This document shows positions 5,986 to 38,058 of a DNA stretch of 64,000 nucleotides, in pieces. The notes under the pieces were generated by a model. It worked only from the letters and a program-made list of their open reading frames with translations. It made no database searches and had not been told where the DNA came from. Both the position numbers and the translations under genes were made by a program. Every line of letters starts with the position of its first letter. Position 1 is the first letter of the stretch. This stretch comes from an uncultured Pseudobdellovibrionaceae bacterium (GTDB taxonomy: Bacteria > Patescibacteriota > Minisyncoccia > Moranbacterales > GCA-2747515). The stretch lies in the NCBI GenBank assembly GCA_964463705.1, contig CAYXCH010000006.1:32576-96575 (forward strand), read 5' to 3'.

Positions 5986-7029
5986 ATGAAGCTCTCGACA
6001 TTTCACACTCCTCTAATCCTGGCAGATGACACGGAAAGTGCCCATGCTACCGCCTATGCATTGGCACACTACTACACGGCACGGCAGGCAACGCCACGTG
6101 TTGTTTGTACTCCTCACCATCGTATATCTCTTGCATTTTTGCCGCAACCGAAGCACTGCCATACCACTGTTGGTGCAACAGAACACTTTACTCTGCGCTT
6201 TGATACATCTACGCATCCCATTGAAGATGTACACGTACAACGAGAAGAGTCGGCGGTAACCATTACCGTTACTCCCAAACATGGCATGATTGATCCAAGG
6301 GACTTCTCCTTTGCAACGGGGGCGTCACATTATGATGTTGTAATTATTGTCGGCGCGGAGGCACTGCGGCGTTATGCGGAAGATATTGCATCCCTTCACG
6401 GACATATTCCATTTATCACTTTACCGACAACATCAGGACACTCTCTCGGTATGAATGTATATACACATATTCATGACAGCAACAATCTTACACCCTCTGC
6501 CGCTCAATGTCTACTTGCCGCCATTGTTATGGAAACCGATGCTCTGCGCACTGCTGACACCGATGTATACCGTGCCGGTGCGGATCTTATGGCGCGAGGT
6601 GCGGATTTGCAGGCAATCATGTCTGCACGATATAAAAACATCACTCTTGATTTTGCCCGATTTTGGGGAGGATTTTTAGAATCACTAACACCACATTGTA
6701 ACGGGAGATGTGCCCTCTCCATTGTTAGCGCTCCCTACGGAAATGATGCAGAAACTCTTGCCACCGCTCTATACAAAACCGCTCCCTACCAACAAAACAC
6801 CGCTATTCTCGGCGCACTGTGGTATTCACGAAAAACACTAAACGGAATGTTTCTTTGCACATCATACACACTGCATACCATTCTTCGGGATACGGTAACG
6901 GAGATTGATTTTCACAATGGTGAATACGGGACCCTGCGTTGCCAAACACAGCAACCCGTCTCTGATATTGTCACTATTCTTACCGACGCCATTACTGCAA
7001 TGGACCAACGCGACAAGAGCAACAAATAA
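5986..7029 (+). CDS. DHH-superfamily (NrnA-like) phosphoesterase-like protein. Catalytic DHH motif not evident.
   Basis: N-terminal ILADDTESAHATAYALAHYY resembles NrnA motif I. The mid-protein segment LLAAIVMETDALRTADTD resembles the NrnA linker. The assignment is tentative. Confidence 0.4.
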   Translation: MKLSTFHTPLILADDTESAHATAYALAHYYTARQATPRVVCTPHHRISLAFLPQPKHCHTTVGATEHFTLRFDTSTHPIEDVHVQREESAVTITVTPKHGMIDPRDFSFATGASHYDVVIIVGAEALRRYAEDIASLHGHIPFITLPTTSGHSLGMNVYTHIHDSNNLTPSAAQCLLAAIVMETDALRTADTDVYRAGADLMARGADLQAIMSARYKNITLDFARFWGGFLESLTPHCNGRCALSIVSAPYGNDAETLATALYKTAPYQQNTAILGALWYSRKTLNGMFLCTSYTLHTILRDTVTEIDFHNGEYGTLRCQTQQPVSDIVTILTDAITAMDQRDKSNK

Positions 7030-7056: not shown

Positions 7057-10000
7057 ATGCCAAAAAAAATTACCGGACACACAGAACTCCAGGACAGTGC
7101 CTATATTAGACGCCAAAAAAAACACGTCTCTCAGACACTGTATAAACTGCGACACCAATCGGAAGAGCGTCAAGCGGCAAAAATTGCAAGGGATGCAAAG
7201 CTTCCCTATATTGATCTCAACCTCATGCCGGTGGACGATGCGGTCGTACGAAGTATTGATGAAGCGCAATCTCGCCGATACAATATTGCCATCTTTCATA
7301 AAGCGGGCCGCAATGTGCGAATCGCCATCGCAGATCCATCCAATGATGATGCACTGACCTTTATTAAAGATATTGCGACACAACAGCGGTGGCGTATCGC
7401 GCTTTATGTCGCCTCTCGTTCTTCTTTGGAAAAGGCGTGGCGCGCATATAAAAAGCCACTACTCGCCCAGGTAGATGCGTTCAACCTTGCACTGGATGAC
7501 GAACTTCTCTCCGGTGCCACACGAGCACTGGAAAACCTTCGCGCTCTGGTAGACGGTGAAGATGATGTCAGTACAACACAAGTGCTGCAAATTATCTTTG
7601 CGGGAGCGGTAGCGCTAAACGCCAGCGATATTCATATTGAACCCCAAGAAAATCGGTTGCGTCTACGGTACAGAATTGACGGAATTTTGCACGATGTCGG
7701 CGATTTGCCACGAAGACTGTATACCGGGGTTGTCAATCGCATCAAAATCATGTCGCACATGAAAGTAAATGTGCGCACCATTGCGCAGGACGGGCGATTG
7801 AGCATCGCGTTGGATGGAGAGATGGGGGGTGAAGTGGACATACGTGTCAGCACCATTCCCGGAAATTATGGCGAGAGTATCGTCATGCGCCTATTGATTA
7901 AAACCGGGAAACTTCTTGATCTTTCCGACATGGGACTGCGTGGATTGGCGGATGAAATTGTACGAAAAGAGGCGGACAAACCCAATGGAATGATTGTTAC
8001 AACGGGACCGACGGGAAGCGGAAAAACAACAACGTTATATGCTCTTTTGCAACGAGCAAATAAGCCCGGAGTAAAAATCATTACCATTGAGGATCCGATT
8101 GAGTATGAGATTGACGGTATTTCTCAGACACAAGTATCCAAAGATGGAAAGTATACATTTGCAAAAGGATTGCGCGCCATTGTCCGTCAAGATCCGGATA
8201 TTATTCTTGTTGGAGAGATTCGTGATGATGAGACAGCGGATATTGCCGTTAATGCGGCATTAACGGGTCACCTCGTATTTACAACAATTCATGCCAATAA
8301 TGCTGCCGCTACCATTCCGCGATTCTTGGAATTGGGGGTAAAACCGTCCATCCTCCCACCGGCAATGAATGCCATCATGGCGCAGCGCTTAGTACGACGT
8401 CTGTGCTCACACTGTAAAGAGGCCTATGAGCCGGCGCAGGAAACGTTAGATATGATTAAACGATTGCTGGCAATTATCTCTCCCAAGGCAAAGGTGGAAA
8501 TCCCCAAAGAAATTACAACACTATATCGGCCCAAAGGATGCCAACGATGCGGTGGTGTCGGATACAAGGGACGGATTGGTATTTTTGAAGTGTTTACCAT
8601 TACGGAAAATATTGAAAAAATCATTTCCGATCTTGGAAGTGAAGAAGACATCATGCGCGCCGCAATGGAAGATGGCATGATGACGATGACACAGGATGGG
8701 GTTCTTAAAGCGGTAGAGGGCATTACATCTATGGAAGAGGTGTGGCGCGTAACCGCGGAAGGAGAATTTTTGGAAGATGTTTACAATCGCGTCATGGAAC
8801 AGTCACTGGCGCGAGCGATTGTTGTAGAGCGAGATATTATCACCACTCTCCGATCACTGGTTAATGACCATGAGGCGTTGGCAACCCATATCCACACAAC
8901 AAACCAAAAAACAGTTATTAAGAGCATCCTCGGTGCAGGATTGCTGATGAATGCCGGCGATATTCACATTGAGCCCGCCGCACATGGTGTAGACGTCCGA
9001 TTTCGTATTGATGGAGTATTGCAGAAAATTGGAACACTTCCCATGAATGAATACCCTTCACTCCTTTCCAATCTTAAGCTTGTCAGCGGATTGAAAACGG
9101 AAGAGCGACATGGAGTTGCCGACAGCCGTTTCTCCATTGTCTTAGATGAACCGTTATCGGAAGAACATGACACAACGCGCATTGATGTTCGTATTTCGTT
9201 TATTGTCAGTGGATTCGGAGAAACAATTGTGATGCGTTTGCTAAATCAGAGTGCCACATCACTGGATATTACACAATTGGGAATTCGTGAACAAAACCTT
9301 CACCGTATTATGGACGTGGTGAAAAAACCCTATGGCATCCTCCTTAACACCGGTCCGACGGGAAGCGGAAAAACAACAACGTTGTACAGTTTACTTCGAC
9401 AACTTAATCGCCCTGACGTTAAAATTATCACCGTGGAGGATCCGATTGAGTATCAAATGGACGGCGTATTGCAAACACAAGTAGATGAAGACTCCGGATA
9501 CACATTTGCTACCGCCCTGCGCGCACTGCTGCGACAAAATCCGGATATTATGATGATTGGAGAAATCCGTGATGAAGAGACGGCGCAAATTGCTGTACAG
9601 GCCGCTCTTACAGGCCACCTTATTCTCTCCACGCTACATACAAATTCCAGTGCCGTGGCAATTCAACGCCTAATGAATATGGGAATTAGCACTGAAGATC
9701 TTGCAACCAGTATTAATGCCATGATGGCCCAACGATTGGTTCGTGTCTTGTGTTCGCACTGCAAAAAGAAAGTACGACCATCAGCGGAACAACAATCCGT
9801 ACTCCACAATGTTCTTGATACAATTTCAGATAAGAGTGGCTTAAAAGCTCCGCAGACAACATATATATATCAACCCGTCGGGTGTGAGCAATGCACACAT
9901 GGATACCGAGGCCGAACAACCATCAGTGAAGTTCTCGTTGTCACACCGGAAATTCAAGAGATGATCGGGAATGGAGAACTCGCCACTCATATCATTGACC

Positions 10001-10104
10001 ATGCCGTTTCCAATGGCATGATTACCATGACACAAGATGGTGCGGTAAAAGTCTTTGAGGGTATCACCTCGTTGGAAGAATTGGAGCGCGTTACGGAACT
10101 GTAA
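7057..10104 (+). CDS. Tandem-fused double PilB/GspE-family secretion/pilus ATPase, 1015 aa
   Basis: Two complete ATPase modules. Each has a Walker A (GPTGSGKTTTLYALL / GPTGSGKTTTLYSLL), an Asp box/Walker B (DPDIILVGEIRDDETA / NPDIMMIGEIRDEETA) and a His box (LTGHLVFTTIHAN / LTGHLILSTLHTN). Each also has a tetracysteine motif (CSHCKE...CQRCGG and CSHCKK...CEQCTHGY). A GspE N-terminal domain is present only at the N-terminus. Confidence 0.85.
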   Translation: MPKKITGHTELQDSAYIRRQKKHVSQTLYKLRHQSEERQAAKIARDAKLPYIDLNLMPVDDAVVRSIDEAQSRRYNIAIFHKAGRNVRIAIADPSNDDALTFIKDIATQQRWRIALYVASRSSLEKAWRAYKKPLLAQVDAFNLALDDELLSGATRALENLRALVDGEDDVSTTQVLQIIFAGAVALNASDIHIEPQENRLRLRYRIDGILHDVGDLPRRLYTGVVNRIKIMSHMKVNVRTIAQDGRLSIALDGEMGGEVDIRVSTIPGNYGESIVMRLLIKTGKLLDLSDMGLRGLADEIVRKEADKPNGMIVTTGPTGSGKTTTLYALLQRANKPGVKIITIEDPIEYEIDGISQTQVSKDGKYTFAKGLRAIVRQDPDIILVGEIRDDETADIAVNAALTGHLVFTTIHANNAAATIPRFLELGVKPSILPPAMNAIMAQRLVRRLCSHCKEAYEPAQETLDMIKRLLAIISPKAKVEIPKEITTLYRPKGCQRCGGVGYKGRIGIFEVFTITENIEKIISDLGSEEDIMRAAMEDGMMTMTQDGVLKAVEGITSMEEVWRVTAEGEFLEDVYNRVMEQSLARAIVVERDIITTLRSLVNDHEALATHIHTTNQKTVIKSILGAGLLMNAGDIHIEPAAHGVDVRFRIDGVLQKIGTLPMNEYPSLLSNLKLVSGLKTEERHGVADSRFSIVLDEPLSEEHDTTRIDVRISFIVSGFGETIVMRLLNQSATSLDITQLGIREQNLHRIMDVVKKPYGILLNTGPTGSGKTTTLYSLLRQLNRPDVKIITVEDPIEYQMDGVLQTQVDEDSGYTFATALRALLRQNPDIMMIGEIRDEETAQIAVQAALTGHLILSTLHTNSSAVAIQRLMNMGISTEDLATSINAMMAQRLVRVLCSHCKKKVRPSAEQQSVLHNVLDTISDKSGLKAPQTTYIYQPVGCEQCTHGYRGRTTISEVLVVTPEIQEMIGNGELATHIIDHAVSNGMITMTQDGAVKVFEGITSLEELERVTEL

Positions 10105-10155: not shown

Positions 10156-11361
10156 TTATAACTGAATTCGGTAGAGTTTTTGATCCAGCATGTTAATAAA
10201 GAACAGTGCATCTTCATCCGGAGATAAAAACGGTTGACTAACTTTATATCGCACTGCTGAAGAAACAACATCATCAACTGGAACAACACGATCTTTTTTA
10301 TTTGTTGTAACATTGATTTTCCAAAATGTATCCCGATCCGCCGTCGGAAATGCACAATAAATTGTCACACTGTCTTTACTCCATGCACACTTGCTTACAT
10401 TTGTAGGAATACGAAGTGGACGGTATTCTCCTCCGTTTGCATTGGCAACACCGAGCATCCTCTCATTACTTCCCTTTACCACCGTAGAGCTGATTAAAAT
10501 AATCTGACCGTTCGGTGAAAACAGGTAGTCCGCATTATAATGCCCTTGAAAAAGTGTTTTTGGTGACGGTGACGCATCCAGCAAATTTACCACTTGTAAC
10601 CGGGTTTTCTCAAAAGGATTTGGCGCTCGCCAAAACGCAACACGAGAGGACTGGGGAATATTTACAAAACGTGAACCTCGTGGAATATCTCGTGCAATAA
10701 CTCGCCACTGTGATCCATCCGGCTGTGCCACATTCAATGTCGTTCTTCGTGTCACAGAATCAAAGTATGTGTAGAGAATTCGATCCCCAACTGTTGTCCA
10801 GTCCACGCGATCCACACCCGGCTTTAATGGCACTCCCTTCTGAGTGCGATGATCAAAGAAATAGATTCGTGTACCACCTGATGGATCTACAAATTTTGTT
10901 AATACACGCTGACCATCCGGCGCCCATGCCGCATAAACAAAGTTCTTTAATGGAACGTCGGAAAACGAACGCGGTGATCCTCCCAACAGCGGCACCTCCC
11001 ACACCGTTCCATCTTCTGCCGCATAGTACCGAATCACCTGCTTCTCCTCATCAACATAAGGAGAAACTACAGCATGACGTGAAACCGGAATGATACGACT
11101 TTTTGTTACTGATGGCGCACGATCTTCTGTGTAGGGAGAGGGTGTTGATGATGATGTTGACGATGAAGTTTCTCCTGATGACTCTTCCGTTTGTTCCTTC
11201 CGATCCGTTTTTGATGACTTCTTATCATTGTCTCGTGACGAATCAGAGGTAGTTGTACGCATCACTGTCTGTGTTGGTGGCGTAAACGCAAACCGATAAA
11301 TGCCCAAAAACATCAGAATAACCACCAGTAGAATCGTTGAAACAATAAATACTTTCTTCAT
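10156..11361 (-). CDS. Secreted or membrane-anchored beta-propeller (TolB/PD40-like) protein
   Basis: N-terminal TM/signal anchor, then a Ser/Thr-rich linker, then repeated W/SPDGQ-type motifs (WAPDGQRV, SPNGQII, LSPDEDALFF). Confidence 0.55.
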   Translation of the reverse strand: MKKVFIVSTILLVVILMFLGIYRFAFTPPTQTVMRTTTSDSSRDNDKKSSKTDRKEQTEESSGETSSSTSSSTPSPYTEDRAPSVTKSRIIPVSRHAVVSPYVDEEKQVIRYYAAEDGTVWEVPLLGGSPRSFSDVPLKNFVYAAWAPDGQRVLTKFVDPSGGTRIYFFDHRTQKGVPLKPGVDRVDWTTVGDRILYTYFDSVTRRTTLNVAQPDGSQWRVIARDIPRGSRFVNIPQSSRVAFWRAPNPFEKTRLQVVNLLDASPSPKTLFQGHYNADYLFSPNGQIILISSTVVKGSNERMLGVANANGGEYRPLRIPTNVSKCAWSKDSVTIYCAFPTADRDTFWKINVTTNKKDRVVPVDDVVSSAVRYKVSQPFLSPDEDALFFINMLDQKLYRIQL

Positions 11362-11373
11362 GGTGCCTGAATA

Positions 11374-14300
11374 TTAGATTCGTGGTGTCTTTCGTACCGG
11401 ATACATGCGCCACAGCAACATCATCAGAACAACAACCACTGCCACCGAAACAAATATTCGGAATAAGAATAGGGTCATTCCCGGCGCTGCCGCTCCAATA
11501 GCTGCCATAAACGCCCCCGGTGCATCCCGACGAACGATGGGATTCTCCGTGTACTCAATCTGCATATTTCCCTCAAAGCGAATCGGGGCAAGGTCTTGAT
11601 CTGTCATTTGCCATGTCGTCCGAAGAACATCGCGAACCTCCGGTGTCGGCTGATAGAGCGCTTTTACTTTAATATTTGTGCTCTCACCGGCATTACGCTT
11701 TGTTCCATCTACCGTAATAGTATCTCCTGTTTCCGGCCGATAGACACTTTCCATAAACCACGCCACTGTCGTATCGGGAGCAATCCACCGTGGATGAACG
11801 GACTCAACGATATTCATTGTGGATTTCGGATATGCCAAGAATACCTGATCACTGTATAAGACACGGCCGGCATCCGAATCTCCGGTATATGACTGCGTCT
11901 TCTTCCGATAAACGCCCGTACACGCTCCAACAGATTTATCCGGATCTGTTGGAGATAGCTTGTCACAGAATGATACATAGGGCGCAACAACCTGGAATGT
12001 TCGTGATACATCCACCGCCGCACCGGAGCCATATCCACCACCGGCTTGTTGACCGATACTGTTTGCCGAAACCGATACCGTAAACTTTGTTCCCACATCA
12101 CCCTGTACGGGCAACACCAGGCACGCCCCCGAGGAAATATTTGTGCTTCCGTCCGCACTACACCCGATACCGTACGGATTTTGCACCGGTCGTCCGTTTA
12201 ATTTCCATCGATAGTTCGTGTACCGTGCAATTCCTCCACCACTCGTGGTTTCATTCAATACAATCTTTAATAACTGATTCTTTACCACCGGACATCGCAC
12301 CAATTGCGCATCATTATCTTCACAAATCCTCTGATCATCAGGACTGGATTGCGCTGTTCCGCCGGAGGTAACCACTTCTGCCGCCGATCGCACCGTATAC
12401 ACAAGCATACGATTAGATGCTCGGGTCACTCGAAAAATTACTTCTCCCAATCCGCGACTTACATCATATTGATGCAACTCTGCCGACCCCAGATCAAATG
12501 CCTCCTCAATCTCCACTCGTGCCCGAAGGTATGTTACATCCTTTCCCGGTGGGAAGATTTTATCATTATGTAAGTTTAATTTGAACCGGAGTGTGGACAG
12601 TCCATTCCCCTCCATTGGCGACAATTCCGCTTCGGGAAAATCAAAGACTCCGCGCCCTGCCGCCCCACCGGCGATCAACCCATCTCGCCAGTTTCGTGGA
12701 TCAAAATCTGCCGTTCCATCGGCGCTCTTGTATAGCCGCCACCGATATCGTAAACGATCACTGGGGTACTTGGCATTGAGAATTGTTGCCGTAATTGTTA
12801 CCGTATCTCCCATGTTAAGATGGTTGCCGGTAAGAGAGTTTACCTCATCATTTACCGGGTTATTGGGCTCTACCGTTAATTCAATATCCAGTTTTCGGGC
12901 CGCTCCACCGCGGGTAGGTGATACCAGTGCATGCGGAGAACTTGACAAACACCGATTAAATGCCTCTTCCGGTGATGTATCAGCAAATGCGATTGCGGGA
13001 ATACTTACATCGTATCCTTTGATTTTCACCTTGTATGCACCCGTTGTTGTCGGTACGGAATTATTAACCATTCCGGAGTAGTCACACGCATTATTGACGG
13101 TGGCAAACATGATCATATTTGACGAGTCCCGGTGCTTTGTCGGCAAAATGGACTCTCCTTCCACAACAACACCCACCTGATCTCCCGGTGTATAAATCCA
13201 TGAGAATACCATTTGTCCAAGACCTACGACCGTCGCCTCGTCCTTCACACCATTTTCCGAGGTGTCATTATCAAACGGGTCTGTGTAGTAAAAATCCTCA
13301 TCAATTTTTGGAAAGGCGCCGTCAACTCCTCCTACCTGTGCCGCATCATCGGTATAATCGCCGGTTCTCCGTGGGAAAAGGTGAAATCGCTCAATATCAT
13401 CCTGTGTAATCGGTTGCGGGTTACATGTATCAATCAGATCACTTTCATCAAAGATATCCTTCCCCGTACTTTCTACACCAAACTGCTCTACACCATAAAG
13501 CTCTGCCTCACAAGAATAATACCGATCCAGTACGAATGTATCGGAGCTTGTCATAATGGCATTCTCCTCCAAATTATCTAACTCCTCCGCGGTAATCGGA
13601 GTGGGAACACCATCAACGACAACGGCGGCGGCAAAGCGCGGAGGCGGCCAGAAAGACTGTAATGCGTTAATGTCTTCATCATTACACTGAAACGGAATGA
13701 ACTGCTCATTTGGCTCTACAACATAATTCCCTCCCTCAAGATCTCCCGGCTCACCGATAGGATCATTGCCCGCCTTAGGATCACCGGCAAGATCAGCACC
13801 ACGAGCAATATACAACCATCGCAGCTCTGCCAGTGCATCTTGTCGCTCTTTCTGTTCATCAATTGTATACTCTAACGACTCTTCCGGAACACAGACAGGT
13901 ATTGCGCCCCCATCACATTCCGGCTTTGCTATACTATTAGCAACCTCTTCAAATAATGAGCCTAGTAAACCTCCACTGGAGCGCTCCTCTACGATTGCCG
14001 GACATTCCGGTATACCAACGACACTGCAGATATTAAACGTATTCTCATCAGAAGTAATATTAACGGAAACAATTGTCGTAGACTCTTGCTCTCCGCGTGC
14101 ACTTCCACCATCGCCACCATCGCCACCGCCAGCGGTACCGGAAGATCCGGTAGCACTTGCATCACCACCTTTACCTCCTTTACCGCCCTCTGCCTCTATC
14201 TCCATACGACGATCTCGATCGATGCCACGTGTAATCTGTTTTGCCGGACATGTCAGCGTCTTGTTCGCCACACATACCGGCACCTTTCCCTCCGGACAAT

Positions 14301-15027
14301 TGAAAACCTCATCCGCATTTACACTCCTAACAATTTCATAGTTTTTTCCGGAATTAAAGTCATGAAGATAGTAAAAATATGGCTTTAAGTCACCCACGGA
14401 ACTCCGCGAACGATCACCACCGGGATAGGCAACATACCCATCTTGATCCGTATCACTATCATCCGCTGCATCATCCGCATACTGGATATCAAACCCCCCA
14501 CCGGCAAGTACACGAGCCGCTTCAATTTTCCAGTCCTGCACATCATAGACACCATCATCATTGTAGTCGCAGTCCTCTCCTTCCACTTCTTCTACCACAC
14601 CATTAATCTCCCGAATTGGCGCCGCACCCAAACCATCGCCACACCGGGCACGCTTTAAATACCATGTATAATACAATGTCTCCGGTTCACCTTTAAAAAA
14701 CTTCGCAAATGCTCGGGCGGTAATTTTTTGTCCCGGTTGCGGATCATTGGGAGCAAACAAAATTTGCACTTCCGGCGCTAATGTTTTATTACCACCAACA
14801 TTCGCCACCTCTCCAATATCCCGTACTGATTCCTGACTTACATGATAGCGCTTCTCCGCCCCGCCAAGAATATCATCAATATCCGGAACTCCCAATGCTT
14901 TCCCGGCAGCACCAAAAAGACCACCTAAGGCTTTACCGAATAGTCCCGCATCTACCGGCACCGCTGTCAATAAAAAAATCTGTACAATCACCGTAACAGT
15001 CATTGCAAATTTTCGTATTGTTTTCAT
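11374..15027 (-). CDS. Large cell-surface protein (~1217 aa) with signal peptide, Gly-rich segment and C-terminal TM anchor
   Basis: The probable start is the Met at 15027 (MKTIRKFAMTVTVIVQIFLLTAVPVDA). The ORF-track start at 15123 overlaps the upstream gene. It has a GGKGGKGGDASATGSSGTAGGGDGGDGG tract and a C-terminal hydrophobic helix followed by basic residues. Confidence 0.6.
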   Translation of the reverse strand: MKTIRKFAMTVTVIVQIFLLTAVPVDAGLFGKALGGLFGAAGKALGVPDIDDILGGAEKRYHVSQESVRDIGEVANVGGNKTLAPEVQILFAPNDPQPGQKITARAFAKFFKGEPETLYYTWYLKRARCGDGLGAAPIREINGVVEEVEGEDCDYNDDGVYDVQDWKIEAARVLAGGGFDIQYADDAADDSDTDQDGYVAYPGGDRSRSSVGDLKPYFYYLHDFNSGKNYEIVRSVNADEVFNCPEGKVPVCVANKTLTCPAKQITRGIDRDRRMEIEAEGGKGGKGGDASATGSSGTAGGGDGGDGGSARGEQESTTIVSVNITSDENTFNICSVVGIPECPAIVEERSSGGLLGSLFEEVANSIAKPECDGGAIPVCVPEESLEYTIDEQKERQDALAELRWLYIARGADLAGDPKAGNDPIGEPGDLEGGNYVVEPNEQFIPFQCNDEDINALQSFWPPPRFAAAVVVDGVPTPITAEELDNLEENAIMTSSDTFVLDRYYSCEAELYGVEQFGVESTGKDIFDESDLIDTCNPQPITQDDIERFHLFPRRTGDYTDDAAQVGGVDGAFPKIDEDFYYTDPFDNDTSENGVKDEATVVGLGQMVFSWIYTPGDQVGVVVEGESILPTKHRDSSNMIMFATVNNACDYSGMVNNSVPTTTGAYKVKIKGYDVSIPAIAFADTSPEEAFNRCLSSSPHALVSPTRGGAARKLDIELTVEPNNPVNDEVNSLTGNHLNMGDTVTITATILNAKYPSDRLRYRWRLYKSADGTADFDPRNWRDGLIAGGAAGRGVFDFPEAELSPMEGNGLSTLRFKLNLHNDKIFPPGKDVTYLRARVEIEEAFDLGSAELHQYDVSRGLGEVIFRVTRASNRMLVYTVRSAAEVVTSGGTAQSSPDDQRICEDNDAQLVRCPVVKNQLLKIVLNETTSGGGIARYTNYRWKLNGRPVQNPYGIGCSADGSTNISSGACLVLPVQGDVGTKFTVSVSANSIGQQAGGGYGSGAAVDVSRTFQVVAPYVSFCDKLSPTDPDKSVGACTGVYRKKTQSYTGDSDAGRVLYSDQVFLAYPKSTMNIVESVHPRWIAPDTTVAWFMESVYRPETGDTITVDGTKRNAGESTNIKVKALYQPTPEVRDVLRTTWQMTDQDLAPIRFEGNMQIEYTENPIVRRDAPGAFMAAIGAAAPGMTLFLFRIFVSVAVVVVLMMLLWRMYPVRKTPRI

Positions 15028-15040
15028 AATATATGTCCTG

Positions 15041-15676
15041 TTATACCGCATAGATTCGCACCATAAGAATAACCCCGCTTGTGAGGAAAAAAAATAACAT
15101 CGGTGAAGATAGTGCGCGTGCAAAGTACCCGATGAGCGCCGCCATCACCATTGCCACCGTTCCTCCGATAACCCCGACACCTATCTCTCCCGATGTTACC
15201 AACACTGAACATAGGGTAACAGCAAGTACTGTCATTATTCCCTGTCGCCATAAACCGCATCCAATCACTCCACCATAGAAAAACGCATGGACAATAGCGG
15301 AATACATTAACAATGCACTATACATTATCATTGATAATCCCTCCTGTGCAATTCCCGGAATCCGAATAACTTGTTCCAGTTCACGATTCATCGTAATCGC
15401 TACAAAAAATACCAGAGAGAGTGCCGCTGATGACAACAACGCCAATATCACTCCTCGCATTCCACCCCGACGACGAATACCATACGTGGAGAGCGGAAGC
15501 CGCGCTCCAAAATGGAGTGTAAATACCGGCAATGCCACAAAAAACGCAGTCAATACAATAACGTCCTGAATAACCGTTTCTCGAGGGAACACGCGATACA
15601 GCACCGCCGCACTCAGTGCCGTCATAATAATAATCATATCCCGACGATCAGGAAGAAATTTGTGGATTGCTTGCAT
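15041..15676 (-). CDS. Polytopic membrane protein. Possibly a CPBP/Abi-like intramembrane protease, but weak.
   Basis: Five to six predicted TM helices with NRELEQ and SAIVHAFFYG segments. These are reminiscent of CPBP motifs but not convincingly so. Confidence 0.45.
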   Translation of the reverse strand: MQAIHKFLPDRRDMIIIMTALSAAVLYRVFPRETVIQDVIVLTAFFVALPVFTLHFGARLPLSTYGIRRRGGMRGVILALLSSAALSLVFFVAITMNRELEQVIRIPGIAQEGLSMIMYSALLMYSAIVHAFFYGGVIGCGLWRQGIMTVLAVTLCSVLVTSGEIGVGVIGGTVAMVMAALIGYFARALSSPMLFFFLTSGVILMVRIYAV

Positions 15677-15683
15677 ATGTCCA

Positions 15684-17513
15684 TTATATCACATCCTGCC
15701 GTTGTGCTGATGCATTCCGCTGCGACTGTTTAATTTCCAATAACTGCCGCGGATCCGTTGTAATAATCTGATCCTCGCTATATGAAGCAACAACCTTGAT
15801 CGCTACATGTTTGGTACCGGCAAATAGGATCCCCTCTCCAACATTGCTCTCCAACAAAAGGTATTTCTCCTCATCGGTAAGATAGAATGTTTCCTGCACT
15901 GTCTGCGCCGATGCTGTTGATTGTTTTAACAACAGCTGCAATGATGAGTTTGTTACGATTGGCTTTCCATACCGCGATCCCATAAAATCGGAAATATCCT
16001 GAGTGATTGTTGTCAATCCCGTATAGTACTTACGACACCGCTTGGCGATCCCAAACAAAAAGCTTGCCGCATCTTCTTTCTGCATCATAACCCATGCCTC
16101 ATCCACAATTACCAAGCGGCGCCGTAATTCCGCCCGCATCTTATCCCAAATAAACTGTAACGCGATGTACATGGCAATCGGCCGCAACTCCTCTTCAAGA
16201 TCACGAATATTAAAGACGATAAGATCTGCATTTGTTTTAATATTCGTATGATTATTGAGAAATCCGGAAAAAATTCCTCGTGTATACTTCTCCAATCGTG
16301 CGGAAAGAGATTCCGCTCCCTCCATATTTTCCAGTACTTGCGCAAGATCTGTCATCGTTGGGAATGCTTCCGGCGGAAGATTGCTGAAATCTTTGTCTTC
16401 CGTAATGTCACGAATGGCATACGTCTCCCGTAATGCCGTATCCAAAATAGAATCCTCTTCCGGCGTGGTAGATCCCAACATAATCCTCAATAACCCAATC
16501 AGCATTGCAATATTGGAGCGCAATACCTCTGCGGGACTTTCATCTTCTCCGACACGCGGCAGATCAAAAGGATTAATAAACGACCGTGATTTCAATGACA
16601 ACTGAATAAATGTCCCATTAACCGTATTACACAAATGCCGGTATTCATTTTCCGGATCAATCACAAATACTTGCGTCCCAAACATCATGGAACGAAGAAT
16701 TTCCAGCTTCACGGCATAACTTTTTCCCGCACCGGATTTGGCAAAGATTACCATATTGGCATTAGGCATCGTAAACCGATCCAGAATTACCAATGAGTTA
16801 TTGTGTCGATTGATTCCGTATAAGATGCCATCATCAGATGAAAGTGTTGAAGATACAAACGGGAACGTTGTTGATAATGGCTGAGTGTTCAAATTGTTTC
16901 CAACATCAATTTCATCATTCGCCAGGGGCAACGTAGAGGCAAATCCCTGCTCCATGCGCAACACTGCCGATTTAACAAATACCAACTGCGCTTCCAGGAT
17001 AGCCTGCACTTCTTTCTCCGCTTTCGTTAAGTTTTCCGTACTGTCGGCGTAAATGGTAATATATAATCCAAAGCGAAAAAAGTGCTCTGTTCCCTGCAAT
17101 AACTTGTCGCGCAGTGCCTCAATGTCCTGCAACGCCGTTTCCAACATTGGATTACGTACTTTCCCCTCTTCGCGCTCAATAGCAATTTGCGACTCTACTT
17201 GTGTTACGCTCCGACGCAATTTTTTCAGAATATCATTCGTTCGGATAGGGTGAATGAAGTACGCAATATCCATCGGTAAATCAAGGTTGATAATGGGAGA
17301 AAACCAGTTTGTTTGCAAATATCGCGGATAAGCCGTTACAAACAATGTTTTTGCATATACCTCTCCAATTGCCAAATGCATCGGTGAAACACGAACGGCG
17401 CTAGGCGCAATAAGACCGCGAACTGTTGCCACACCTCGCTGAAAAATTTTCTCCGCCTCTACAATCGATGTTTCTTCCGGTGAAGATGCATGTTGTTTCA
17501 ATATTTGTACCAT
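15684..17513 (-). CDS. VirB4/TrbE-family conjugation ATPase, C-terminal ATPase portion
   Basis: Walker A AKSGAGKSYAVK and Walker B RRLVIVDEAWVMM. The upstream segment EVYAKTLFVTAYPRY is typical of the VirB4 middle region. Confidence 0.8.
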   Translation of the reverse strand: MVQILKQHASSPEETSIVEAEKIFQRGVATVRGLIAPSAVRVSPMHLAIGEVYAKTLFVTAYPRYLQTNWFSPIINLDLPMDIAYFIHPIRTNDILKKLRRSVTQVESQIAIEREEGKVRNPMLETALQDIEALRDKLLQGTEHFFRFGLYITIYADSTENLTKAEKEVQAILEAQLVFVKSAVLRMEQGFASTLPLANDEIDVGNNLNTQPLSTTFPFVSSTLSSDDGILYGINRHNNSLVILDRFTMPNANMVIFAKSGAGKSYAVKLEILRSMMFGTQVFVIDPENEYRHLCNTVNGTFIQLSLKSRSFINPFDLPRVGEDESPAEVLRSNIAMLIGLLRIMLGSTTPEEDSILDTALRETYAIRDITEDKDFSNLPPEAFPTMTDLAQVLENMEGAESLSARLEKYTRGIFSGFLNNHTNIKTNADLIVFNIRDLEEELRPIAMYIALQFIWDKMRAELRRRLVIVDEAWVMMQKEDAASFLFGIAKRCRKYYTGLTTITQDISDFMGSRYGKPIVTNSSLQLLLKQSTASAQTVQETFYLTDEEKYLLLESNVGEGILFAGTKHVAIKVVASYSEDQIITTDPRQLLEIKQSQRNASAQRQDVI

Positions 17514-17530
17514 GGAATATGGTGTTAATT

Positions 17531-18226
17531 CTATAACCCCTTCAAGTCCAGCGTATCAATATTCTCTGACAGCGATGTGCTGGTAAATAAGGAGGGATTA
17601 TATGCATTATACAACAGCTCCAATACTTCCTCCGTATTCAACATTCGTCCGCGCACTCCGGTTCCCCCGAGTGCCGCCGCCACATGATCTACTCGTTGAA
17701 ACAACTGATTTTTATATGTTTCAAATCTCTCTCGCTTACGTGCAATTTTGTGTGCCGGGTGTAGTGCATGAAACAATCGGAGAAATATACTCTCTCCCTC
17801 ACTTTCCACGGGAGAAAACGGCACAACGACATAAAAATATTTTGTCATAATGTTCCGTACCTCCGTTAATTCACTAATGTATGCGCGGTACTCCATAATT
17901 TGCATACGAAGCGCCTCATTCTCCGTCATCCGCTCTCGTTTATCAATTTTCTTCAAGTATGGGGCAATATTAAGACGACGAGAATTAATAACGATTTGTA
18001 CGGGAAAATCCAATGAGTTTAAAAAACTCTGATACTGAATAATAATCGCATCTTGCTCTTTTTCCGATTTCAACTCAAAATTAATGGAAGACATCATTAC
18101 AATAGCACGCAATGAACCGTTCCGTAAGACGATAACACCATCGTGTACCGACTCTACGTCCACATATTTCAATGTGCTGGATCCCGATGGCCCCGTACTC
18201 AGTGATGTAGAATGTAATCGCTCCAT
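17531..18226 (-). CDS. VirB4 N-terminal domain protein. The VirB4 gene is split into two ORFs.
   Basis: HDGVIVLRNGSLRAIVMMSSINFELKSEKE matches the VirB4 N-terminal pattern. It ends 17 nt before the start of the ATPase ORF, in a different frame. Confidence 0.65.
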   Translation of the reverse strand: MERLHSTSLSTGPSGSSTLKYVDVESVHDGVIVLRNGSLRAIVMMSSINFELKSEKEQDAIIIQYQSFLNSLDFPVQIVINSRRLNIAPYLKKIDKRERMTENEALRMQIMEYRAYISELTEVRNIMTKYFYVVVPFSPVESEGESIFLRLFHALHPAHKIARKRERFETYKNQLFQRVDHVAAALGGTGVRGRMLNTEEVLELLYNAYNPSLFTSTSLSENIDTLDLKGL

Positions 18227-18231
18227 AACTA

Positions 18232-18699
18232 CTACTTCTTCTTTGTTACCGTGTTGGCAGAAATTTCATCAAATCGCTCAGGGTGAACTGCTCCCTCCGT
18301 ATCCAGCACAGTGGAAAGTGTTGACAAATCTTCTTCGCTCAGTTTTGCTTGTTCCCGATAGAACTGAGATTTATACTGGGTCTTTGGCGGTGGAGCGGTA
18401 GGTGTAGCCGATGATGATTTTGGCACACGCTTCCACACATAAATTTTTGGCTGGAAAAGATATGTCAGTGCATATCCAATGAATACAACCAGCGGAACAC
18501 CCTGCGGACGATAAAATGCCAGCGCAACAAATATCAATACGACGGGAATCCCGATAATGTAAAATGCTTCCTGGCTAAATACATTCCATAGTATCAACAG
18601 TATCGCCCCCATCGCAAGAAACCACAAAAACTGTCGTGCCGTCAACGGACCGGCAATTTTATCTTCAACATTGATAAACTGCGGTACGCTGAAAATCAT
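18232..18699 (-). CDS. PrgI/VirB3-like small membrane protein
   Basis: N-terminal VPQFINVEDKIAGPLTARQFLWFLAMG followed by two TM helices. It sits immediately upstream of VirB4, as prgI/virB3 normally does. Confidence 0.5.
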   Translation of the reverse strand: MIFSVPQFINVEDKIAGPLTARQFLWFLAMGAILLILWNVFSQEAFYIIGIPVVLIFVALAFYRPQGVPLVVFIGYALTYLFQPKIYVWKRVPKSSSATPTAPPPKTQYKSQFYREQAKLSEEDLSTLSTVLDTEGAVHPERFDEISANTVTKKK

Positions 18700-19679
18700 A
18701 CGGTTGTATTATGTTTTGCGTCCGATGATCGTTCTCGCGCAAATACTTGTGGTGATGAGAACCTTACATATCCCATCGGAGTGGATGGTGATGCTGATTT
18801 TATTGTACCACGATTTCCGGTACGTGTCGCCCCGGTGGCAGTGGTAGATAGTTTATCAGGTGATGTACGAGAAGAATTCGCTGCTTTTCTCTCTGATGTG
18901 GGAGCAGGTGTATGCGCTACAGATGATGAAATACCTTCACGATGTGGAATATCCTGTGGAGCCGGAAATATAATAGCCGGCTGAGCGGTATTGATTACCA
19001 ATGGAATCTTCTCATCATAAGACTTTAAAATCATTGCAACACGCTGTCGTTCCTGCGGCGAAAGTGATTTTGTATTGCGATTATGAAATAGATACTTCCC
19101 CCGATCAATTGCATTATGTGTACGAGATCCCATCACTGATCGATAATTCTGCAGCCAATTCTCCACCGTCCCCGGAACGTGTTCCGGCATAATAATATCC
19201 TGCTGTGTAATACGCTGAATGGCAATATCGGGAAACTGTTTTAGTGCCGCTGTTAATGGCATACGAACATTAGCATTGACGATCTCCTTCCGAATAACAC
19301 GCCGTACCAATACTTGTGCAATCTGTGCCGCCACCGATGCCTCCACACCGGTGTGTTCTTGAATATATGCCGCAAACCGTTCCAATGGCAGTTCTTCAAA
19401 GTAGAACAGCCGCACCGCCCGTGAAAGATATGCCGCCTGTTCAACAGATAGTGAGTATTGCTTACTGATTTCTTTAATTTTCTTGTCCGTTTCCTCTGAT
19501 GCAAGAATGTCTTTAGCGCTGTCACTTAATGCAAAAAACTTCCTCCATCGCTCGGCATTTTCCTCCTCTGTTTCCCGCGGACTTGTCGGTACCCACATTG
19601 GCGAATAGCTTTGCACTATATATACATCATTTGGTGATATGACAGAAGAGGCGGTATGATGATGAGACTGATTAGGCAT
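18696..19679 (-). CDS. Hypothetical protein within the T4SS-like operon
   Basis: 327-aa ORF with a 4-nt overlap (ATGA-type coupling) with the downstream gene. No family motif recognised. Confidence 0.5.
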   Translation of the reverse strand: MPNQSHHHTASSVISPNDVYIVQSYSPMWVPTSPRETEEENAERWRKFFALSDSAKDILASEETDKKIKEISKQYSLSVEQAAYLSRAVRLFYFEELPLERFAAYIQEHTGVEASVAAQIAQVLVRRVIRKEIVNANVRMPLTAALKQFPDIAIQRITQQDIIMPEHVPGTVENWLQNYRSVMGSRTHNAIDRGKYLFHNRNTKSLSPQERQRVAMILKSYDEKIPLVINTAQPAIIFPAPQDIPHREGISSSVAHTPAPTSERKAANSSRTSPDKLSTTATGATRTGNRGTIKSASPSTPMGYVRFSSPQVFARERSSDAKHNTTV

Positions 19680-19695
19680 ACGTCATATTATTAAA

Positions 19696-21540
19696 CTATT
19701 TGTTGCCCGGACGGGGTTGATTATTCGAGTATTGCCTATATACATCCGACAATCGCTCCAATTGGTTGTGATTATCTTGTTCGGTATTACGAAACACTTC
19801 TCGCAATGCATCTTGATTATCAAAGAATTGCTCATCTAAGTATCTCTGCATTACTTTTGCGGAATTGCGAACTTCTCCAAGGCCTTGCTGCTTTGCCATC
19901 TCTTGAGGTGAAATATCCATATGCAGTGCCGCCGCATCTTCCGGTGCGACAACAATGATGTTATTTTCATCATCAAGCTCAAGGTCTTGTCCGGTATTGT
20001 ATGAATACTCTACCAATGTTCCGCGACGCTTTTGGCGATTTATCTCTCCCTTCAACTGAAATCGATATGCCGCCGTCTCTGCGCCATTACCAATTGCTCG
20101 CGTTGTTGTCGCAATATCAGTGGCGGTAAGTCGACCCCGTTTTGCCAACTCCATTGCCGCCGCCGCCCGCTCATGGCGGCTTTTTTTAGAATTTAAAACT
20201 CTTCTCAATTGACTTGGCGAAAGATGCTCCATTGACTTGGAAAATGAAGCCACCGCATTGGCAAACGCCTCTGCTTTTGCACGCTCTCTCTCCACAATGG
20301 CAAACTGTGCCGACAGTACCTGTGCATGACGATTCGCCTTTCGCTCAAATCGTTCACGACGGCGCTGCGCACTTACTTTGAATGATCGGGCGGTGCCGAC
20401 AACAAGAGCTGCTCCCGGTATCTTTCTCGCCATATTTGCAATAAGCTTTCGGTCCTTCGCCGCCATACCGCGGAGACGACGAACAGTGTTCCGAGCAGCA
20501 CCGGTAACCATTCCACTGGCAGCATCGGACATTGCTGATGATGTAATAATACCGGACCATAGGATAATTACCGGAATTGCCAAAAATGCGATATTGGCAA
20601 TATTTGATGTTTGTGCGGCATTGGTGGCGGCGGTATCAGCGGGAATTGTGATGCGAATATCACTATCTTTACTAAATGCAATATCATGATTATATGCCAT
20701 GAATGTCATGGAGAAGAACAATGTAAACACGAGAATTGGCCCCGCCATCGCATATTTAAACAAGTTATTCCAATATCGACTGGCAATACCCTGTGTAGAC
20801 GGAAGTATGGATGCAACAAACCCTATTGGTGACAGTACCATAAGAATTGCCAATGCAACCAATCGAATAACAAATAATACCCCGATAACCACCATGGATA
20901 TACTGTAGAAGAAAGAGAAGATAACGGCAAAAAATGTATATGTTACTGAGGATGTCTTGGCATCAAAGTTGGGAACAAATACATCCATAATATTAATACT
21001 CCTTCCGAAAATCTCTACCGGCTCATACCCCGTACCGTTCTGTGGAAACAGTGAATGAAGAAAAAAGTACATGACAATATTGAAGACATCAATAATCGCC
21101 TTAGTGATTGGAAGGGAAAAGTTTACCAATAGCGCCATAATCACCAAGCGCAATAATATTGATCGTAAATGAAACCGTTCTATATGGAAAATTGTTGCAA
21201 ATGCGCTAAATAATAGAATAAGAATGAATGATAAGTTTAATAGATCCCTTACCAATACCCACGTTACATCAATAACTTGCGCATCCAGAATTGCTCGTGT
21301 CGTATCGGCATCCACAATGTAAACAAATAACAGTGTCCCCGCAACACCCAATAATCCAAAGCCGACACCGATATAGTATAACACCCAGTTAAGTCCCGAC
21401 ACGATCGCGGAAGCATCAGCAATATGGATACCCAGAAATACGCCGATAATCGCCAGTAATCCGGCGCGCCTGCGTGTTCCGGTTGTCACATTCAACAATC
21501 TTTTCAAATATTGCCTCATAAAAATAATCATTTCTATCAT
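19696..21540 (-). CDS. VirB6/TrbL-like polytopic membrane protein with C-terminal coiled-coil/charged tail
   Basis: About 8 hydrophobic helices followed by a long Arg/Ala/Glu-rich tail. The start is set at the Met at 21540, because the ORF-track start (21666) would overlap yraN. Confidence 0.6.
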   Translation of the reverse strand: MIEMIIFMRQYLKRLLNVTTGTRRRAGLLAIIGVFLGIHIADASAIVSGLNWVLYYIGVGFGLLGVAGTLLFVYIVDADTTRAILDAQVIDVTWVLVRDLLNLSFILILLFSAFATIFHIERFHLRSILLRLVIMALLVNFSLPITKAIIDVFNIVMYFFLHSLFPQNGTGYEPVEIFGRSINIMDVFVPNFDAKTSSVTYTFFAVIFSFFYSISMVVIGVLFVIRLVALAILMVLSPIGFVASILPSTQGIASRYWNNLFKYAMAGPILVFTLFFSMTFMAYNHDIAFSKDSDIRITIPADTAATNAAQTSNIANIAFLAIPVIILWSGIITSSAMSDAASGMVTGAARNTVRRLRGMAAKDRKLIANMARKIPGAALVVGTARSFKVSAQRRRERFERKANRHAQVLSAQFAIVERERAKAEAFANAVASFSKSMEHLSPSQLRRVLNSKKSRHERAAAAMELAKRGRLTATDIATTTRAIGNGAETAAYRFQLKGEINRQKRRGTLVEYSYNTGQDLELDDENNIIVVAPEDAAALHMDISPQEMAKQQGLGEVRNSAKVMQRYLDEQFFDNQDALREVFRNTEQDNHNQLERLSDVYRQYSNNQPRPGNK

Positions 21541-21553
21541 TATATCATATATT

Positions 21554-21937
21554 TTATAAAAAGATATCTTGTAAAAATTGTACCTGCGCTTTTCGTGTAT
21601 GCACATTAATACACACACTGATTGCGCAGTATCGTATCGCCCCCGTCCGCTGATATGCCCGGACATAGTATGCCATTACTCGCTCCATCGCGTGCAACTT
21701 TGCACGCGTAATACGCAGCTGTGGTGGATCCACATTCTCCGAGCTATGACGAAGACACGTTGTTTTTACTTCCACACAATACAAAACTCCCGAACGCTCC
21801 GCAATAATATCCACCTCTCCTCGCTTGATGGGAATCTTTGGCATATAATTGCGCGCAACAATATCATACCCCCGCCGTTGCAGATATCGCGCGGCAATTT
21901 CTTCCCCAAGCCGTCCGCATTCCCATGCTGTTGACAT
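21554..21937 (-). CDS. yraN: YraN-family (UPF0102) endonuclease
   Basis: GRLGEEIAARYLQRRGYDIVARNY...GEVDIIAE matches the YraN/UPF0102 signature. Confidence 0.8.
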   Translation of the reverse strand: MSTAWECGRLGEEIAARYLQRRGYDIVARNYMPKIPIKRGEVDIIAERSGVLYCVEVKTTCLRHSSENVDPPQLRITRAKLHAMERVMAYYVRAYQRTGAIRYCAISVCINVHTRKAQVQFLQDIFL

Positions 21938-21940
21938 ATA

Positions 21941-21965
21941 TACAAAAAGGCGGGAAATCCCGCCT
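21941..21965 (-). terminator. Intrinsic terminator ending the intergenic transcript, 8 nt upstream of the yraN ATG
   Basis: On the minus strand: AGGCGGG, AUUU, CCCGCCU, followed by UUUUUGUAUAU. Confidence 0.55.
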
Positions 21966-22495
21966 ACATTCCGTTAAGATACCGACAATCCACTGTCAGT
22001 CAATTCCCGGTGTCTTCCCGTATGAGGTGTTGTCACCGGGGGCACTGCGCCCCTAAACAGATTCCTTGGGCCGTGCCGCCCGGCTGATGCAGACAACATG
22101 CTGCGCGCTTCTCGTACTCGGGTGAATGGATACAAGAAGAAACAGTGCATGTAATATATCTGCCTCACACACGTGATTCTATCACGCGCTGACATGGTGC
22201 GAGCATTGCTCGCCTACGCCTCCCCGTCCGCGGGTTTGCTCCCCTTTTTTTCTTCAAGGTACTCGGTACACTTTTGTTTTTATTTTTGTGTTTTTGTATT
22301 TATGCTTGATAAATACGACCGTTTTGTTTTTGTTTTTTGTGTGTTGTGTTGTTTGCCGGCATCATATGATGCTCAGACTAACAAACATACGGACAGTGGA
22401 GACGTTCCGATTGTGAATAGGGGGGCTTCACAATCGGAACGTCGCCACCGTCGGCGTCCATGTCATTTCTTGTTAATGTGCGTTTCGTTACTGAC
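21941..22495 (-). ncRNA. Candidate ~555-nt non-coding transcript of unknown class
   Basis: Bounded by a near-consensus sigma70 promoter (22502..22530) and an intrinsic terminator (21941..21965). No ORF of meaningful length. Contains a perfect 17-bp hairpin (22398..22440) and an A/C-rich tract. Confidence 0.3.
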
Positions 22496-22501
22496 AAGCT
22501 C

Positions 22502-22530
22502 AGTATATCATCCTCTAAAGGCCACGTCAA
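22502..22530 (-). promoter_or_regulatory. Near-consensus sigma70 promoter
   Basis: On the minus strand: TTGACG, a 17-nt spacer, then TATACT. Confidence 0.5.
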
Positions 22531-22653
22531 CGCATTTATAAAAAAATGCCGTAAATAAAGGGATTTTTAATATGCTTACATAAAAACAATATAGTTGTTA
22601 TAAAATTATGCCAAAAAAATACCGCCATTTTTATTTAAAGTACAATAAAAAAC

Positions 22654-22679
22654 TGTGGAAAACTTGGTAGTTTTCCACA
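22654..22679. promoter_or_regulatory. Inverted pair of DnaA-box-like 9-mers
   Basis: TGTGGAAAA, an 8-nt spacer, then TTTTCCACA. The same 9-mer family occurs in the oriC clusters near dnaA. Confidence 0.4.
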
Positions 22680-22700
22680 GTTTCATATCATTTTCCCAAC

Positions 22701-32345: not shown

Positions 32346-32504
32346 AAAAACACCTCGTTAACTTACACCCGTATTTTACCGCACTTAAAGTAATTGCGCC
32401 AATTATTCTCTTTCCGAAAAATTGTTATTTGCAAAGAGCAGAGTTCGGAAAATAAAACGCATTCTATTTATTGGCAATGTGCCACGACAAACAAAAATCC
32501 ATCG

Positions 32505-34260: not shown

Positions 34261-34272
34261 GGATGTTTGAAG

Positions 34273-37145: not shown

Positions 37146-37158
37146 ACAACTTTAGTTA

Positions 37159-38049: not shown

Positions 38050-38058
38050 ATATTTTAC

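Follow-up and report, generated by a model that had tools for sequence, protein, structure and literature searches.

Type IV filament motors such as PilB, GspE and their relatives are treated as homohexamers, and how their six motor sites are coupled to a platform now regarded as trimeric and internally duplicated is a mechanistic question in the field. What ring, then, would a motor build if each of its chains carried two ATPase modules? This question is raised by a gene in contig CAYXCH010000006.1 (assembly GCA_964463705.1) of an uncultured bacterium that GTDB places in the Patescibacteriota, in a stretch of 64 kb (positions 32,576 to 96,575 of the forward strand) that we call the window. 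The group belongs to the Candidate Phyla Radiation (CPR), whose bacteria live as episymbionts, a way of life in which type IV pili play a central part. The gene encodes two PilB/GspE-type modules in one chain. This fusion is genuine, is not unique to this genome and is conserved in a subset of the ultrasmall CPR/Patescibacteria. We consider it fairly probable that the product is a CPR tandem extension ATPase that arose by a single duplication and fusion of an orphan PilB, with both modules active and three chains forming one planar ring of six modules.

A PilB/GspE-type ATPase with two modules in one chain

The gene was found as an open reading frame (ORF) of the window, and residues are numbered on its product. 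The protein is composed of N-terminal domains (N1D, N2D) and C-terminal domains (CTD), arranged as follows.

7057..10104, forward strand: fused tandem-module PilB/GspE-type ATPase gene, ATG start; product of 1015 aa and 112.4 kDa
7198..7455, forward strand, residues 48-133: N1D, a GSPII-type N-terminal domain (MshEN, PF05157, E=6e-11), in single copy
7558..7944, forward strand, residues 168-296: N2D of module 1, with Arg fingers R263 and R278, mapped to R271/R286 of Geobacter metallireducens PilB
7945..8757, forward strand, residues 297-567: CTD of module 1, with Walker A K323, Asp-box E349, catalytic E387 (by alignment), pore-loop D390/E392, T403, H405/H412, R447 and Zn cysteines C450/C453/C495/C498
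8758..8910, forward strand, residues 568-618: inter-module junction, a conserved linker helix (invariant columns F571, L572, E573, Y576 and M580) followed by helices equivalent to the pre-N2D helices of module 1
8911..9291, forward strand, residues 619-745: N2D of module 2, with R691 and Arg fingers R712 and R727
9292..10101, forward strand, residues 746-1015: CTD of module 2, with Walker A K772, Asp-box E798, catalytic E836 (by alignment), pore-loop D839/E841, T852, H854/H861, R896 and Zn cysteines C899/C902/C943/C946

An earlier note on this DNA, made from the letters alone, had described a head-to-tail fusion of two complete PilB/GspE-type modules with a GspE-N domain in the first half only, and Pfam bears out both points. 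It reads the chain as N1D (MshEN), a first N2D–CTD module, a linker and a second N2D–CTD module, with MshEN found once and full-length T2SSE domains at residues 168-564 and ~619-1011 (combined E=6e-229); no N1D/MshEN domain was detected by Pfam in the second half. The Walker A, Asp box, Walker B, His box and tetracysteine motifs that the note had read in both halves were all located in each of them: GPTGSGKT starts at residues 317 and 766, EDPIE at 345 and 794, GEIRD at 386 and 835, and TGH at 403 and 852, while the two CxxC pairs of each half start at 450 and 495 in the first and at 899 and 943 in the second. The halves align with each other over ~420 residues at 44% protein identity (E=8e-128), which places the duplication far beyond chance. 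Their DNA reaches at most 71% identity, over 300 nt, so that the gene is neither a recent nor a collapsed tandem repeat. No other T2SSE-type ATPase was found in the 64-kb window, and the gene is, as the note had it, the sole extension/secretion ATPase there.

To which branch of the secretion ATPases do the modules belong? Among structures in the PDB, both match PilB, PilF and GspE at 290-382 bits, versus ~110 bits for PilT. An AlphaFold2 (AF2) model of the fused protein has a mean predicted local distance difference test score (pLDDT) of 79.4, and its modules superpose one at a time on PilB/PilF with TM-scores, normalised to the target, of up to 0.90; no PDB chain spans more than one module of the fused protein (query-normalised TM-score at most 0.36). 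With the NCBIfam models for PilB (TIGR02538, cut-off 675.65) and GspE (TIGR02533, cut-off 630.25), half 1 reaches 486.4 and 483.7, half 2 reaches 418.2 and 424.4, and the full chain 892 and 896, respectively; the full chain passes these cut-offs only because the two module scores add up. The fused protein is therefore a member of the PilB/GspE family and not a named equivalog.

The other branches fit less well. The modules score 176.7 and 177.7 with the PilT model TIGR01420, whose cut-off is 319.1, and both fall far below the cut-offs of the TrbB, DotB and FlaI models. With the VirB11 models, the two modules together reach 100.7 bits for TIGR02788 (cut-off 249.95), and the score for PRK13851 is 66.6 (cut-off 461). 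The alignment of each half to PilB, PilT, GspE and VirB11 profiles that the earlier note had proposed thus gives PilB/GspE as the best match, with VirB11 far below its cut-off. A PilT/PilU-type retraction ATPase was rejected, as each module misses the PilT model and both carry the tetracysteine; this Zn-binding motif separates the PilB/GspE clade from PilT/PilU (PMC5424180). We also considered control by cyclic di-GMP through the MshEN domain. The MshE-type binding motif is a 24-residue RLGxx(L/V/I)(L/V/I)xxG...LxxxLxxQ in the N-terminal domain. Neither this strict form nor a loose RLGxxLL occurs in the first 200 residues of any of the 120 family members checked, and we rejected this type of control for the family.

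Each module shares its fold (TM-score up to 0.90, ~43% identity) with the canonical proteins, represented by G. metallireducens PilB (5TSG/5TSH), Thermus thermophilus PilF (5OIU) and Vibrio GspE (4PHT). The N2D-CTD organisation and the catalytic, Arg-finger, His-box, pore-loop and Zn residues are common to them and to each fused module, and the GSPII-type N1D is common to them and to module 1. What sets the CPR fusions apart is the number of modules: canonical chains have one, whereas these have two or, in the protein P0002 described below, three. In addition, the fused protein has a single N1D for two modules, and no pilC, pilM, pilT or pilin genes are encoded with it.

Reality, distribution and origin of the fusion

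A fused gene in an assembled metagenome could stem from a tandem duplicate that collapsed in assembly, or from a sequencing error that joined two neighbouring genes. We found no point in support of such an artefact and give it practically no chance. The same 3048-nt ORF is present in contigs of three other assemblies (ENA, Logan and JGI) with 0-1 mismatches, and more than 130 full-length homologs have a homologous, conserved junction. The earlier note had raised the concern that an assembly error created the fusion; this is excluded by the divergence of the halves, the three independent assemblies and the homologs. The sole candidate for a stand-alone module-2 gene, P0223, starts 26 nt from a contig end; it is a fragment truncated at the contig edge and was rejected.

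The survey of single and fused forms in related genomes that the note had suggested finds both, and the fused form is a conserved family in Patescibacteria. At least 130 homologs of 978–1047 aa have the same architecture, and all of them come from Patescibacteria where reliably named. In a search of 5.8 billion protein clusters at 90% identity, the best 120 matches are 1005-1047 aa long and cover the full protein at 54-100% identity, with the exception of one triple of 1460 aa. These 120 include proteins from metagenome-assembled genomes (MAGs) of 2012 and 2015 named Moranbacteria, Parcubacteria or Patescibacteria, which carry no database annotation beyond 'GspE/PulE family protein' or 'PilB'. 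When 1.84 billion representatives at 50% identity were scanned exhaustively, ~13 full-length fused clusters (P0121-P0133) of 978-1018 aa and 39-51% identity came up, against 15,761 representatives in total that match at E<=1e-30; the architecture is thus conserved but rare. A tblastn scan of GTDB genomes served as a sample, and counts of loci drawn from it hold among the matches listed; there, doubles in a single ORF occur at 40-53% identity (L008-L013, L051).

We looked for fusions outside the CPR as well and rejected the candidates: the long tblastn matches from Planctomycetota, Verrucomicrobiota, Omnitrophota and similar groups turned out to be distinct neighbouring genes, ordered pilB-pilT-pilB or pilB-pilB. 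The first order is seen in MAGs of Planctomycetota, Verrucomicrobiota and Kiritimatiellae (L020, L046, L053, L059, L085), and an Omnitrophota MAG has an unfused head-to-tail pair of full-length pilB genes with an overlap of 17 nt (L076:5503-7170 and 7154-8872).

In the literature searched, which lacks most subscription journals, we came across no account of tandem PilB/GspE fusions in nature. Two papers on CPR pili (PMC6744442, PMC12206443), a review of type IV filaments (PMC10191384) and a paper on the mechanism of PilB (PMC5424180) do not mention tandem fusions. The fused sequences are already public under generic names, and what they represent is a variation on the architecture of a familiar motor rather than a novel type of system.

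How often did the fusion arise? In a neighbour-joining (NJ) distance tree of 150 modules, the second modules form one clade without any single-domain protein; the first modules interleave with single-domain CPR PilBs. The doubles, down to those at 40% identity, all have a homologous junction (...EEVWRV-G-(D/E)FL-E-Y-...-M-Q-L-R...). The single module-2 clade and the homologous junction point to a single origin. One protein carries the process further:

L004:10001-14383: triple fusion P0002 (JGI 3300022698), 1460 aa and 162 kDa, with three complete PilB modules

The modules of P0002 are 43-58% identical to one another, its junction is the same as in the doubles, and its modules 2 and 3 are sisters within the module-2 clade. 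Taken together, the sequences fit one ancient duplication and fusion, with a later re-duplication in the triple.

The likely source is found at the same place in related genomes. Single-domain 'orphan' CPR PilBs (L016:5965-7626, L041:5974-7650) resemble the fused proteins in their MshEN+T2SSE start and in their placement with module 1 in the tree, and they have the same genomic position and neighbours; they differ in having one module in ~555 aa, and the module-2 lineage occurs only inside fused proteins in this sample. The recurrent neighbours of the fused gene are tsaE, a gene of the DHH family (~375 aa) directly upstream on the same strand, ruvB, yebC and ruvC. Among the matches listed, these markers (tsaE, DHH-like, ruvB, ruvC, yebC) occur at 7 of 14 non-redundant fused loci and at 36 of 73 single-domain PilB loci, and they are missing from all loci that carry several separate T2SSE genes. 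The locus of P0002 has the tsaE/DHH-like context too. In L016 and L041 the order by Pfam is polA ... [382-aa DHH-like] - pilB (554-559 aa, MshEN+T2SSE) - ruvB - bPH_2. By position, the fused gene is thus an ortholog of the orphan single-domain PilB that is widespread in the CPR; given the shared position and neighbours, it is not part of a new system. This orphan PilB locus, single or fused, is a conserved CPR feature that has so far gone undescribed.

Conserved sites and proposed assembly of the ring

We took the definitions of essential residues from McCallum et al. 2017 (PMC5424180) and aligned the fused proteins to 5TSG, where the chain index equals the numbering of the paper + 20. The residues of G. 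metallireducens PilB mapped in this way were R257, R271, R286, T327, E357, E395, D398/E400, T411, H413/H420 and R455, and they were followed in 138 fused proteins of 39-100% identity, made up of 119 close and 19 distant homologs. At the Walker A Lys, the Asp-box Glu, the catalytic Glu, the equivalent of T411 and the two His-box histidines, neither module varies in any of these proteins (138/138), and the same is true of the Arg fingers R263/R278 of module 1 and R712/R727 of module 2. The pore-loop acidic pair, the equivalent of R455 and the eight cysteines show little or no variation: in the pore loop of module 2, D839 is kept by all 119 close homologs and E841 by 118 of them, and the Zn cysteines are invariant in the close homologs and kept by 17-19 of the 19 distant ones. 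Mean column conservation in modules 1 and 2 is 0.85 and 0.80 for the CTDs and 0.81 and 0.80 for the N2Ds. Both modules are under strict purifying selection at the ATP, Arg-finger, Zn and pore-loop sites. This conservation suggests that both are most likely catalytically active and that both most likely face the substrate pore; the impression in the earlier note that both halves are competent is consistent with it, as far as catalytic and Zn motifs can tell.

The modules are not identical in what they conserve. At the position of R257 in G. metallireducens PilB, which forms a salt bridge with the Asp-box Glu in the open state (PMC5424180), module 1 (residue 247, nt 7795..7797) has His in 90, Gln in 13 and Arg in 11 of the 119 close homologs; the corresponding residue of module 2 (residue 691) is Arg in all 119, and the copy in the window has Arg in module 1 as well. 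This is the only systematic difference between the modules at a mechanistically described residue. Beyond it, 10-16 residues per module are invariant in that module only, among them R228 and Q244 in N2D-1 and Y576, E665, P667, I694, S714 and N730 in the linker and N2D-2. These are candidates for a specialisation toward two platform domains. Together with the R257 position, they could also be read as traces of an asymmetric motor, in which one module hydrolyses ATP productively and the other is a nucleotide-sensing or structural pseudo-subunit. Degenerate pseudo-ATPase modules, however, normally lose the very residues (Walker A Lys, Asp-box Glu, catalytic Glu, Arg fingers and His-box pair) that are fixed here in both modules of 138 proteins, and the two CTDs are conserved to a similar degree; we regard such an asymmetry as quite improbable.

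How would two-module chains assemble? The usual six-site motor ring is probably built here from three chains and not six. The results above show, or come close to showing, that an orphan single-domain CPR PilB, lying between the tsaE/DHH-like genes and ruvB, was duplicated internally and fused once, and that the fused form has replaced the single-domain PilB at the same position in some lineages. In the assembly that we propose, three chains would close one planar ring of six modules, alternating A-B-A-B-A-B, with just three N1D anchors, and the ring would work like an ordinary PilB hexamer, in which the ATP-driven opening and closing of N2D/CTD packing units turns and lifts the platform. Three ATPase chains would thus meet three platform chains, and each module could be dedicated to one of two non-identical platform domains.

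Several lines of indirect evidence favour this planar ring, which corresponds to the trimer-of-dimers of the earlier note, over the pseudo-dodecamer that the note had also named. The ancestor at this locus was a single-module PilB, and PilB works in every case studied as a hexamer of N2D(n)-CTD(n+1) packing units (PMC5424180; PMC10191384); a trimer of two-module chains would therefore be the least disruptive outcome. The platform PilC/GspF is internally duplicated and forms a trimer, whose six cytoplasmic domains are each predicted to contact one N-terminal domain of the ATPase (PMC10191384); for PulF, a trimer is likewise described (PMC10790770). A platform of this kind would offer six cytoplasmic domains to six modules. 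The existence of a triple fusion favours a six-site ring, since 2x3 and 3x2 both make six. The acids of the module 2 pore loop are kept, which would be hard to explain in a ring that never meets the platform, and some of the module-specific invariants lie in the N2Ds.

Other six-fold assemblies make the arithmetic familiar. Among sliding clamps, PCNA is a trimer of two-domain chains and the bacterial beta clamp a dimer of three-domain chains. Their six-domain rings, made as 3x2 or 2x3, parallel the double (1015 aa) and triple (1460 aa) PilB fusions; the clamps are unrelated in fold and function, and for the PilB fusions such a ring stoichiometry is proposed. PilC/GspF (PulF) follows a similar logic, a unit duplicated within the chain with three chains giving six-fold pseudo-symmetry, although it is an unrelated membrane protein, the likeness is architectural and not homologous, and no PilC gene is present in the window. 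Covalent constraints on a hexameric ATPase ring have also been engineered, as in single-chain ClpX and in the GspE-Hcp1 fusions, whose entries 4KSR/4KSS are among the PDB matches of the modules; those are man-made, and the PilB fusion is natural and ancient.

The alternative that has to be weighed most carefully is a stacked double ring. Here six chains would form a ring of modules 1 and a coaxial ring of modules 2 with 12 ATP sites, of which only the one proximal to the N1D would be in contact with the membrane platform. The PilB fusions share with known stacked-ring ATPases the presence of more than one P-loop ATPase module in a polypeptide: in KaiC, p97/NSF and ClpB, all from other ATPase families, the two modules of a chain lie in separate stacked rings. 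The linker of ~50 residues, modelled by AF2 with low confidence, would make stacking sterically possible. Yet the fused gene replaces a single-domain ortholog that forms homohexamers, for which the planar trimer is the minimal change, and the triple fusion would need three stacked rings. A distal ring would be out of reach of PilC, although the pore-loop acids and N2D surface of module 2 are conserved like those of module 1. Moreover, the N2D(n)-CTD(n+1) packing can be satisfied in-plane by a head-to-tail fusion (PMC5424180). On balance we find the stacked arrangement, with its single platform-facing ring, unlikely.

Some observations weigh against the planar three-chain ring and its proposed history. 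AF2 gives the full chain a predicted TM-score (pTM) of 0.44 and the construct CTD-1+linker+N2D-2 one of 0.56; the models are widely scattered around a low-confidence linker (pLDDT <50 for ~residues 568-585) and speak neither for nor against docking within the chain, or for a planar over a stacked ring. PilB is thought to cycle with C2 symmetry (PMC5424180), and an A-B-A-B-A-B ring would put unlike modules opposite each other. The NJ distance tree of the modules carries no support values, and just one triple fusion has been seen, on a single contig. Finally, pilC, pilM, pilT and pilin genes are absent from the window and from the 10 kb around every annotated fused locus. Platform and alignment genes of the GspF and GspL types were likewise not found in the 64 kb of the window, nor within 10 kb of the gene in annotated relatives, and the window contains no type IV pilin signal motif. 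The absence of pilus genes at these loci suggests that the partner machine is encoded elsewhere.

It is tempting to go one step further and to speculate that the double and triple PilBs of the CPR are natural covalent heteromers, whose sub-functionalised modules each engage one or the other of two unlike cytoplasmic domains of PilC in a 3:3 (or 2:3) complex of motor and platform; this we put forward tentatively. A two-module motor with intact sites and module-specific invariants would be a ready-made asymmetric ring, whose alternating sites could be mutated separately, where other ring ATPases needed engineered concatemers. If the covalent heteromer is real, it would offer, for the first time in a natural system, a type IV filament motor ring whose alternating sites are independently mutable, and it would allow a direct test of the rotary C2 model versus a C3 mechanism, and of the hexamer-to-trimer stoichiometry.

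The neighbouring genes and the T4SS-like cluster

Downstream, the fused gene converges with a cluster that resembles a type IV secretion system (T4SS).

10156..23981, reverse strand: T4SS-like cluster, Gram-positive/CPR style, convergent with the fused gene
11374..15123, reverse strand: protein of 1249 aa in the cluster, no Pfam match, C-terminal hydrophobic anchor
15684..17513, reverse strand: VirB4-like
17531..18226, reverse strand: TraC-like
18232..18699, reverse strand: PrgI
19696..21666, reverse strand: TrbL_3/VirB6-like

Several genes of the cluster are without a Pfam match. In relatives the fused gene is flanked by the ruv block; here the cluster lies between the two. The earlier note had pointed to this convergence, and to the lack of VirB11 and VirD4 homologs nearby. 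Indeed, neither VirB11 nor a coupling protein (VirD4) was detected in the window, so could the fused ATPase energise the cluster in place of the missing component? The fused gene does converge on the VirB4-like, TraC-like, PrgI and TrbL_3 genes, and the cluster is real. However, the gene stands on the opposite strand, tblastn found no VirB4 homolog at 11 other fused loci, and the annotated contexts of other fused loci hold housekeeping genes and no T4SS genes. The adjacency is thus lineage-specific. The tetracysteine in both modules and the N1D in module 1 are traits of the PilB/GspE clade (PMC5424180). Given the unconserved adjacency and the low VirB11 scores reported above, the functional link implied by the note is not supported, a VirB11-type T4SS ATPase was rejected as an identity, and we consider a role of the fused protein in driving the cluster very improbable.

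On its other side, the fused gene is preceded by a DHH-like gene, of which relatives lie upstream of PilB elsewhere.

5986..7029, forward strand: degenerate NrnA-type DHH-fold protein of 347 aa, 27 nt upstream of the fused gene
L004:8782-9906: DHH-like relative upstream of PilB
L005:8792-9916: DHH-like relative upstream of PilB
L008:4660-5796: DHH-like relative upstream of PilB
L051:4841-5968: DHH-like relative upstream of PilB
L016:4732-5877: DHH-like relative upstream of PilB

In L004 and L005, the DHH-family gene that immediately precedes the fused one matches the window protein at E ~1e-25, and a profile of this family finds members upstream of 4 fused and 8 single-domain PilB loci among the matches listed. 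The relatives match Pfam DHH, and the structures of NrnA and Rv2837c at E ~1e-13; the window copy has no Pfam match. The catalytic DHH triad is kept only in L008 and reads DCH in L004, DNK in L005, DNN in L051 and PTT in the window. The DHH-like protein may be a pseudo-enzyme partner of the ATPase, or its position may simply be conserved synteny.

Further away, the window too holds the ruv block of the relatives, with ruvB (46943..48001), an LTD/PKD protein (43410..46229), yebC, ruvC, 7TM-transglutaminase and ATP-grasp genes, together with dnaA and dnaN. This block is displaced from the fused gene by intervening DNA that includes the T4SS cluster. A role in DNA uptake, as the linkage to ruvB, ruvC and yebC might suggest, was not adopted, because the neighbourhood looks like conserved housekeeping synteny and because in TM7x the recAX-linked type IV pilus locus T4P-2 is dispensable for competence (PMC12206443). 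In L016, the RuvB gene downstream of the single-domain CPR PilB (L016:8707-10890) contains an intein with a LAGLIDADG homing endonuclease, giving a product of 728 aa.

The genes dnaN (48547..49653) and dnaA (49864..51276), both on the reverse strand, lie at the minimum and upturn of the cumulative GC skew (~50-54 kb), and the window therefore probably spans a replication origin. Its GC content is 0.44-0.51, except for two low-GC stretches at 32001..40000 (0.37-0.41) and 62001..64000 (0.35). The first of these holds several ORFs without a Pfam match and part of a run of RimK/ATP-grasp paralogs (37159..41512). This run adjoins the 7TM-transglutaminase gene (41517..42209), and an ATP-grasp/7TM pair is also found near the fused gene in L005 and L089.

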